Source of the DNA: Lophium mytilinum | Taxonomy: Eukaryota | Assembly (NCBI GenBank): GCA_010093605.1 | Contig: MU004187.1 | Location: 1,248,018 to 1,312,017 of the forward strand | DNA: 64,000 bases | Direction of reading: 5' to 3' | In this document: piece by piece, positions 28,905 to 29,277 of the stretch | Layout: each line of letters begins with the position of its first letter | Numbering within the stretch: position 1 is the stretch's first letter | The notes under the pieces: generated by a model | Seen by the model: the letters and a program-made list of their open reading frames with translations, nothing else | Database searches by the model: none | What the model was told of the DNA's origin: nothing | Made by a program: the position numbers and the translations under genes

Positions 28905-29277
28905 ATGCGCCTCAGCTTGTACATCATTCCACTTGTGGTCTTTCTCAGTGCTGCCCTGGCCTTTCCCACTCCAGAAGGTAATCTCTCGCACTATTCAGCG
29001 GTTGTTTTGAGACTGTGGGCTAATCATATCGAGAGGCTCTGCGACTGTTGACGCGGACGAGAATGTTGGAAACAGCTGGCACGAGAGAAACATCGCCAAC
29101 AAAGTGTCCCGCGCCAAAGTCGATGCCGATGAGGCAGTGGGCAATAGCTGGCACGAACAAGATATCGGAAACAGAGTCTCCCGCGCCGAACTCGACGCCG
29201 ACGAGCAAGTGGGGAACAGTTGGCACGAACGTAACCCTGCAAACACAATCGAAGTGTCGACAGGCCGCAGAGCTTGA
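28905..29277 (+). CDS. Secreted multi-core repeat peptide, candidate RiPP precursor (104 aa; exons 28905-28977 and 29036-29277)
   Basis: MRLSLYIIPLVVFLSAALA-FP signal peptide; 58-nt intron GTAATC...GCTAAT...GAG; three 72-nt repeats encoding (V/L)DADE(N/A/Q)VGNSWHE; 3.4 kb from the nearer DUF3328 gene. Confidence 0.8.
29047..29244 (+). repeat. 72-bp tandem repeat x ~3 (precursor core repeats)
   Basis: TGGCACGA recurs at 29077, 29149 and 29221 (period exactly 72); core differences are mostly synonymous. Confidence 0.9.

Follow-up and report, generated by a model that had tools for sequence, protein, structure and literature searches.

The DUF3328 (UstYa) enzymes of fungi are described as copper- and O2-dependent, dimeric membrane proteins of the Golgi and endosomes that carry a binuclear copper centre and attack C(sp3)-H bonds, with the motif HxxHC(x)nHxxHC forming the copper site (PMC12435403). 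The histidine arrangement of this site resembles that of the plant BURP cyclases, and the activities described include a hydroxylase (CctR), a halogenase (ApnU) and a cyclase (AprY), of which AprY and ApnU behave alike (PMC12435403). In the ustiloxins and phomopsins, DUF3328 enzymes join Tyr to Ile (PMC7329392). The DUF3328 enzymes named in that survey as acting on ribosomal repeat precursors all make rings, and the structurally known DUF3328-made ribosomal peptides named in these two papers all use Tyr. DUF3328 genes cluster around genes for repeat precursors, on average 3.09 genes away. Among the precursors linked to them, Tyr is missing from 34% and Trp is present in 20.5% (PMC7329392); Tyr-free types in this set include G-3 and G-8, with HH, and P-3, with W (PMC7329392). 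No report on the product of a Tyr-free DUF3328-linked precursor, or on a Trp-based DUF3328 product, was found among open-access papers and bioRxiv. In the plant burpitides, Trp is known to take part in cross-links, as in the indole-N to C(sp3) link of the lyciumin type and the Leu C-beta to Trp C6 link of the stephanotic acid/moroidin type; a Trp C2 to His N1 link is also described (PMC11253845).

The window analysed here, a stretch of 64,000 nucleotides from Lophium mytilinum (Dothideomycetes), contains a gene that probably encodes a secreted multi-core precursor of such a UstYa/DUF3328-dependent (dikaritin-class) ribosomal peptide, with a Trp core and without Tyr (Table 1). It shares three features with dikaritin genes: the product has a predicted signal peptide and a repeated core, and DUF3328 genes are linked to it; kexin sites between the repeats are absent. 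The peptide that the first-pass annotation had given as the spliced product, the joined translation and GenBank KAF2497002.1 are identical over all 104 residues. KAF2497002.1 is the "hypothetical protein" BU16DRAFT_538121, so that the gene, which had been called hidden and outside the open reading frame (ORF) track, is already public as a model and is unnamed, not unannotated. The stop-to-stop frame that contains the repeats (29011-29277) has no start codon, which explains the earlier impression. A Pfam scan of the protein gave no family above cutoff. The terms Lophium, Mytilinidion, GNSW, DADE and KAF2497002 were not found in three supplementary files of PMC7329392, and no mention of this precursor family was found in the literature searched (open-access papers and bioRxiv). 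Tyr-free DUF3328-linked precursors have already been counted in bulk, as in that survey.

Table 1. Positions of the precursor gene, the neighbouring genes and their counterparts in related metagenome loci.
Sequence	Feature	Position	Strand	Details
Window	Precursor gene, exon 1	28905..28977	+	ATG at 28905; from sequence and translation
Window	Signal-peptide-like N-terminus, residues 1-19	28905-28961	+	MRLSLYIIPLVVFLSAALA
Window	Phase-1 intron, 58 nt	28978..29035	+	GTAATC at 5' end, AG at 3' end
Window	CTAAT branch-like motif within intron	29020-29024	+	from sequence
Window	Precursor gene, exon 2	29036..29277	+	three tandem 24-codon repeats, tail GRRA, TGA stop
Window	Repeat 1	29047..29118	+	VDADENVGNSWHERNIANKVSRAK; core DADENVGNSWHE at 29050-29085
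Window	Repeat 2	29119..29190	+	VDADEAVGNSWHEQDIGNRVSRAE; core at 29122-29157
Window	Repeat 3	29191..29262	+	LDADEQVGNSWHERNPANTIEVST; core at 29194-29229
Window	U1, UstYa/DUF3328 gene	23617..24430	+	223 aa; GenBank BU16DRAFT_617031, 'Oxidase ustYa'
Window	U2, UstYa/DUF3328 gene, several exons	24490..25482	-	convergent with U1; borders approximate
Window	Aldehyde dehydrogenase gene (ALDH)	25976..27475	+	PF00171 on three consecutive ORFs
L001	U1-type exon	124-26		at contig start
L001	Precursor homologue	1774 onward		
L002	U2-type gene	6709-7639		
L002	Precursor homologue	8829-9074		
L003	GMC oxidoreductase	711-1316	-	
L004	U2-type gene	3475-4510		convergent pair with U1-type gene
L004	U1-type gene	5243-4712		convergent pair with U2-type gene
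L004	Precursor homologue	6115-6519		
L004	GMC oxidoreductase	6814-8283	-	
L005	U1-type gene	739-208		
L005	Precursor homologue	1614-2018		
L006	GMC oxidoreductase	1097-2764	-	

Exon 1 codes for MRLSLYIIPLVVFLSAALAFPTPE and one extra base. Behind the hydrophobic 19-mer at its start comes FPTPE, and the exon closes within the Gly25 codon, after one base; read on unspliced, this frame reaches a stop at 29049-29051. The annotated intron corresponds to the splice in the GenBank gene model. A second AG is located at 29032-29033, two bases upstream of the annotated one at 29034-29035, and splicing to this upstream AG would place exon 2 in a different frame that is likewise open (29024-29344). Of these two competing 3' AGs only the annotated one yields the conserved frame, and the orthologue from Mytilinidion resinicola keeps the junction peptide PEG-S/A-A/G-TVDADE. 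The predicted splice is therefore supported by the GenBank model and by the conservation of the junction in Mytilinidion. The N-terminal 19-mer has a Kyte-Doolittle mean of 2.17 and is composed of Arg2, a hydrophobic stretch of 17 residues and A-L-A ahead of the predicted cut; sequence comparison showed it to be conserved in the homologues. Judged by these residues, the Lophium precursor has the features of a signal peptide for the secretory pathway, and cleavage is predicted after Ala19 by the -3/-1 rule.

Tandem Repeats Finder described the region behind the junction as a 72-nt unit in 2.6 copies (29050-29235, 72% matches, score 204). In translation, the 12-residue core D-A-D-E-x-V-G-N-S-W-H-E is identical in the three copies save for one position. 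Codons 1-13 of the unit (V/L-DADE-x-VGNSWHE) contain 13 variable nucleotide sites among the three copies, distributed 2/1/10 over codon positions 1/2/3, compared with 8/7/8 in codons 14-24. When the 13 core differences were redistributed at random 20,000 times, no placement gave as few as the two amino-acid-variable codons observed. On account of this third-position bias and the randomisations, the core of the three repeats is under purifying selection as protein in the proposed frame, as had been concluded at first sight from the variants GGA/GGC/GGG, AAC/AAT and AGC/AGT, all of which are present in the repeats. Conservation of the repeats in another frame, named by the first-pass annotation as contrary evidence, was not found: 12 of 24 residues are invariant across the copies in the proposed frame, against 3/23, 3/23, 4/24, 10/23 and 4/23 in the other five. 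These results also bear on whether the gene is functional at all. If the tandem repeat were non-coding and its frame open by chance, or if the gene model were spliced wrongly, this would agree with the ambiguous 3' splice site and with the fact that several other frames over the repeat are open too. Yet the 2/1/10 distribution, the randomisations, an orthologue that matches in length and a family whose conservation is confined to this frame all speak against it, and this explanation is close to refuted. Gene model, N-terminus and selection on the repeats together bear out the spliced, secreted, multi-repeat precursor that was originally proposed.

The family was collected by several searches. 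A word-indexed search returned the Lophium gene itself and the 104-aa orthologue from M. resinicola, which is 82% identical. An all-against-all HMMER comparison over 1.84 billion representatives gave 7 proteins at E<=1e-3; one of them (P0005) was removed as a probable out-of-frame repeat lacking both a signal peptide and the D-x-D...W unit, and a profile search contributed three further family proteins. JGI metagenome contigs scanned with the pattern DAD[ED]xVxN[SVT]W yielded 58 matches and six confirmed loci (L001-L006), of which L004, L005 and L006 share the same precursor and were counted as one lineage. Besides the M. resinicola orthologue (XP_033583446.1), the members of named origin belong to Kalmusia sp. 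(Pleosporales; KAJ4296370.1) and to two lichen fungi, Circinaria calcarea (KAL9118982.1) and Pleopsidium flavum (P0012). All full-length members open with an MR-type hydrophobic N-terminus or signal peptide, followed by one to eight repeats with the consensus D-[A/P]-D-x-x-[V/I]-x-x-x-W, and an intron directly after the signal peptide is also found in three of the four metagenome lineages.

For a closer view of the unit, 43 repeats from 15 proteins or ORFs were taken with a regular expression fixing positions 1, 2, 3, 6 and 10, by which the invariance at these positions is partly constructed. In the units chosen this way, position 1 is D in 40/43, position 2 is A or P in 43/43 and position 3 is D in 43/43; then follow mostly E/D, a variable residue, V or I (43/43), another variable residue, mostly N, S/T/A (42/43) and W (43/43). 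His follows directly on Trp in no more than 6 of the 43 units, and the Mytilinidion orthologue carries one WQE unit. Of the "Trp-His core" in the first description, the Trp is retained throughout, albeit in units for which the pattern fixes it, while the His holds only locally; what these repeats keep besides the Trp appears to be two Asp and a beta-branched aliphatic residue. The epithet "tyrosine-free" likewise applies to the Lophium gene, where the translation of residues 29-104 contains neither Tyr nor Phe, but not to the family, since the units of the lichen members read DADEAIAYAWF and include both.

The family is also diverse in its flanking residues. KR or RR sites were found in 8 of the 14 other family sequences (P0006, P0008, P0009-P0012, L002 and L003), whereas none is located between the three Lophium repeats, where the sole dibasic pair of the protein is the RR at residues 102-103. 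Three metagenome proteins (P0009, P0010 and P0011) form a Cys subfamily with units of the type VDPDVC[V/I]GVSW followed by KR/KER sites; Cys and Trp are five residues apart in them, which invites the question of a Cys-Trp or other Cys-based link. A resemblance of the segments VKNSW and VRNSW (V-K/R-N-S-W in L001, L003 and L004) to the catalytic-Asn segment of the papain family was judged coincidental.

Two UstYa/DUF3328 genes, U1 and U2, are located 3.4-5.3 kb upstream of the precursor gene (at 3.4 and 4.5 kb), with one gene in between. U1 matches PF11807 with an E-value of 5e-24 (85.8 bits, cutoff 25) and has the motifs HQLHC and HIRHC and an N-terminal transmembrane helix at residues 31-49. 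A protein search with U1 gave an exact match (P0013) on the same 2,251,244-bp contig, and no Mytilinidion protein was among the 10 matches obtained from 19 scored candidates. U2 matches PF11807 on its last exon with 23.3 bits, under the 25-bit cutoff, and has an HELHC motif and a transmembrane-like hydrophobic stretch in exon 1; its second HxxHC is apparently split by an intron (GPHI / DHC). The U2 exons are 36-68% identical to the orthologues in L002 and L004.

The gene that separates the UstYa pair from the precursor encodes an aldehyde dehydrogenase without a counterpart in the six related loci, and its membership in the cluster is doubtful. Both this gene and a methyltransferase gene (32932-33810), which has no counterpart there either, were dropped as cluster members. 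The ALDH gene and the 3.4 kb between the precursor and its nearest UstYa gene are a point against linkage in Lophium itself. Pfam scans covered 70 ORFs between 13.4 and 46.1 kb and 132 window ORFs in all. None of these 132 ORFs matched a tyrosinase, a BURP domain (PF03181) or a peptidase, and the remaining window has a housekeeping character, with genes for RNA polymerase, PRPP synthetase, GST, an AP-complex mu subunit, choline kinase and a phosphodiesterase. Just upstream of U1, at 21448-22829 (-), a gene for a Fung_rhodopsin (PF20684) membrane protein is located, and a gene of the same family occurs in L006 (3673-4077, -), two genes from the precursor. The window and the loci share one weak match in this family (39% over 33 aa, E 3e-6), and the co-occurrence may be due to chance because the family is large. 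Elsewhere in the window, a 1107-aa ORF (38831-42154, -) without Pfam match contains a 123-nt tandem repeat in 2.4 copies at 39735-40030 and further repeats of 12 nt (4.8 copies) and 21 nt (5.1 copies).

The linkage of precursor and UstYa genes was assessed by tblastn of the window ORFs of at least 40 aa against the six metagenome loci. All four loci with at least 1 kb of upstream flank have a UstYa orthologue on that side of the precursor homologue, at a distance of 1-1.7 kb (L001, L002, L004 and L005; Table 1); L003 (1,318 bp) and L006 were left out of this count, each having less than 400 bp of upstream flank. The four testable loci represent three further lineages, which makes four lineages with the Lophium window included. 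Specific matches trace to three regions of the window, those of U1, U2 and the precursor, and include two short opposite-strand ORFs overlapping U2 exons, and the weak Fung_rhodopsin match was the sole one from outside these regions. The UstYa exons of the window and the loci are 36-75% identical, implying that the lineages are far apart. Other neighbours differ: ALDH and AP-mu in Lophium, a methyltransferase and a GMC oxidoreductase in L004, an MFS transporter and an M20 peptidase in L002, and a GMC oxidoreductase in L003 and L006. With 9,399 DUF3328 genes counted in 1,461 genomes (PMC7329392), repeated adjacency by chance would be very unlikely. That precursor and UstYa are functionally linked is argued chiefly from the retention of UstYa amid reshuffled neighbours, and the two UstYa genes nearby together with the orthologues beside the precursors in 4/4 testable loci strengthen the assignment to ribosomally synthesised, modified peptides. 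The GMC oxidoreductase gene is directly downstream of, and convergent with, the precursor in two metagenome lineages, where it may encode an accessory enzyme; no such gene was found among the window ORFs scanned.

The conserved neighbourhood also has to be weighed against an unmodified product, that is, a secreted repeat peptide or small protein acting as a KEP-like signal, an effector or a pheromone-type peptide, while the UstYa enzymes serve another substrate. The architecture is like that of linear precursors such as alpha-factor: MFalpha1 and the ascomycete alpha-type pheromones share with the family a signal peptide and tandem units, and L003 has X-Ala spacers, its KR-DAEA spacer being typical of Kex2/Ste13 processing. 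Furthermore, most Kex2-processed repeat proteins (78%) are encoded away from any DUF3328 gene (PMC7329392), and the matches in a protein atlas include an MF_alpha cluster, scored 0.79; all of these matches fall short of the 0.9 needed to count and were used as leads only. On the other hand, UstYa orthologues stay in place in 4/4 testable loci while other neighbours change, and a tandem-repeat search of the window gave no candidate for a repeat peptide near U1 and U2 other than the 72-nt array. Unlike alpha-type pheromones, the Lophium protein has no Pfam match to MF_alpha or MF_alpha_N (P0002 and P0003 were both below the cutoffs). Alpha-type pheromone genes are almost never linked to DUF3328, 100% and 98.6% of the pheromone-type precursors in the survey having no such neighbour (PMC7329392), whereas the Lophium precursor gene is. 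An unmodified product is accordingly regarded as quite improbable.

If the precursor instead gives rise to a UstYa-modified peptide, as preferred here, its signal peptide would bring the 104-aa protein into the secretory pathway, where the membrane-anchored binuclear-copper oxidases U1 and U2 would act on each of the three D-A-D-E-x-V-G-N-S-W-H-E units; proteolysis would then free the modified peptides, three at most and each some 8-12 residues long. U1 and U2 are presumably the modifying enzymes, and the type of modification can be proposed only tentatively. By analogy, and as the chemistry that needs the fewest assumptions, we tentatively suggest an oxidative macrocycle in which the Trp10 indole (N or C) might be joined to the beta-carbon of Val/Ile6, resulting in a five-residue ring V-G-N-S-W. 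The suggestion follows from the characterised UstYa enzymes abstracting hydrogen from a C(sp3)-H beside an aromatic residue, these two being the only such invariant side chains. The main alternative is a modification without ring closure, in which U1 and U2 hydroxylate, halogenate or desaturate a side chain such as Val6 or Asn8. DUF3328 hydroxylases (CctR) and halogenases (ApnU) are documented (PMC12435403), the sequence itself forces no ring, and the evidence from UstYa linkage counts equally for this alternative. Against it stand the ring formation of all DUF3328 enzymes named as acting on repeat precursors (PMC7329392), and the beta-branched and aromatic residues four positions apart, which match the requirement of a cross-link and whose invariance is partly fixed by the regular expression. 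A linear modified product is considered rather unlikely.

How the modified peptides would be released can be proposed from the residues around the unit. The acidic head, D-A/P-D, probably serves for recognition or for trimming; the latter would fit position 2, which is always Ala or Pro, as in the removal of X-Ala/X-Pro dipeptides by enzymes of the Ste13 type. Ste13-type dipeptidyl peptidases have a specificity for Ala or Pro at the second position. In 19 of the 43 family units, including Lophium repeats 1 and 3, an Arg is found three residues past Trp (W-x-x-R), and this would be the best candidate for a C-terminal cut in Lophium, given the lack of dibasic sites between its repeats. In the family members that have KR sites, these bracket the unit: L002 has KR directly before D1, and L003 reads KR-DAEA-DADDLVRNSWSA-KR, the protein ending in ...WSA.

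The precursor and its two oxidases constitute a compact test case for copper enzymes on a Trp core, helped by the sharply defined conserved residues Asp, Asp, Val/Ile and Trp, and they are a well-defined target for heterologous expression as well as a good lead for genome mining. Should the Trp macrocycle, at present a speculative proposal, be correct, the dikaritin class would gain its first cross-link that does not depend on tyrosine, and the precursor from which the product is freed would be one that does without Kex2 sites.

In comparison with the described dikaritins, two points speak against placing the Lophium gene among them: the usual kexin-site hallmark is missing, and the core has no Tyr, the residue of every dikaritin ether link named in the survey (PMC7329392). 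Like the precursors of ustiloxin and phomopsin (UstA and PhomA), the Lophium protein has a signal peptide and a short core in tandem, with DUF3328 genes of the type with two HxxHC motifs nearby (PMC7329392); as for ustiloxin, the DUF3328 genes are two in number and a small secreted product is expected. The ustiloxin and phomopsin cores are of the Y-x-I type (YAIG, YVIG, YVIP), are cyclised from Tyr to Ile and are flanked by Kex2 sites, whereas the Lophium core D-A-D-E-x-V-G-N-S-W has no Tyr and no dibasic sites separate the repeats. These systems, as described there, also require a tyrosinase, a gene without equivalent among the ORFs scanned in the Lophium window. The kexin-processed repeat proteins termed KEPs (Umemura 2020) have their general architecture in common with Lophium (PMC7329392). 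They are defined by KR/RR separators, and the Lophium protein, which has none, does not belong to them; KEP-type pipelines would miss the gene for this reason, and genome-mining rules that demand Kex2 sites miss real candidates.

Asperipin-2a (AprA, AprY) is similar to Lophium in its minimal cluster of a precursor and a DUF3328 enzyme. The asperipin core is rich in Tyr, and one enzyme makes both rings, whereas in Lophium the enzymes are a pair of paralogues and the core contains Trp. For AprY, cyclase activity that depends on copper and O2 has been demonstrated (PMC12435403).

The plant burpitides resemble the Lophium precursor in having multiple cores, each with a Trp that ends the core or stands close to its C-terminus and an aliphatic residue 3-4 positions upstream of Trp (PMC11253845). 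BURP cyclases contain copper in a planar site of four His, like that modelled for DUF3328 (PMC11253845, PMC12435403). They differ in being plant enzymes unrelated in sequence; Lophium is a fungus, and no BURP domain occurs in the ORFs scanned. The burpitide analogy drawn in the first-pass annotation consequently serves as a comparison of how the enzymes may work, given the BURP-like copper/His site of DUF3328 (PMC12435403), and not as class membership. If the Trp macrocycle, which we put forward with little confidence, is nevertheless formed, Lophium would offer a fungal, convergently evolved counterpart of the lyciumin- and stephanotic-acid-type burpitide chemistry, and the chemistries of fungal UstYa and plant BURP enzymes would be linked.
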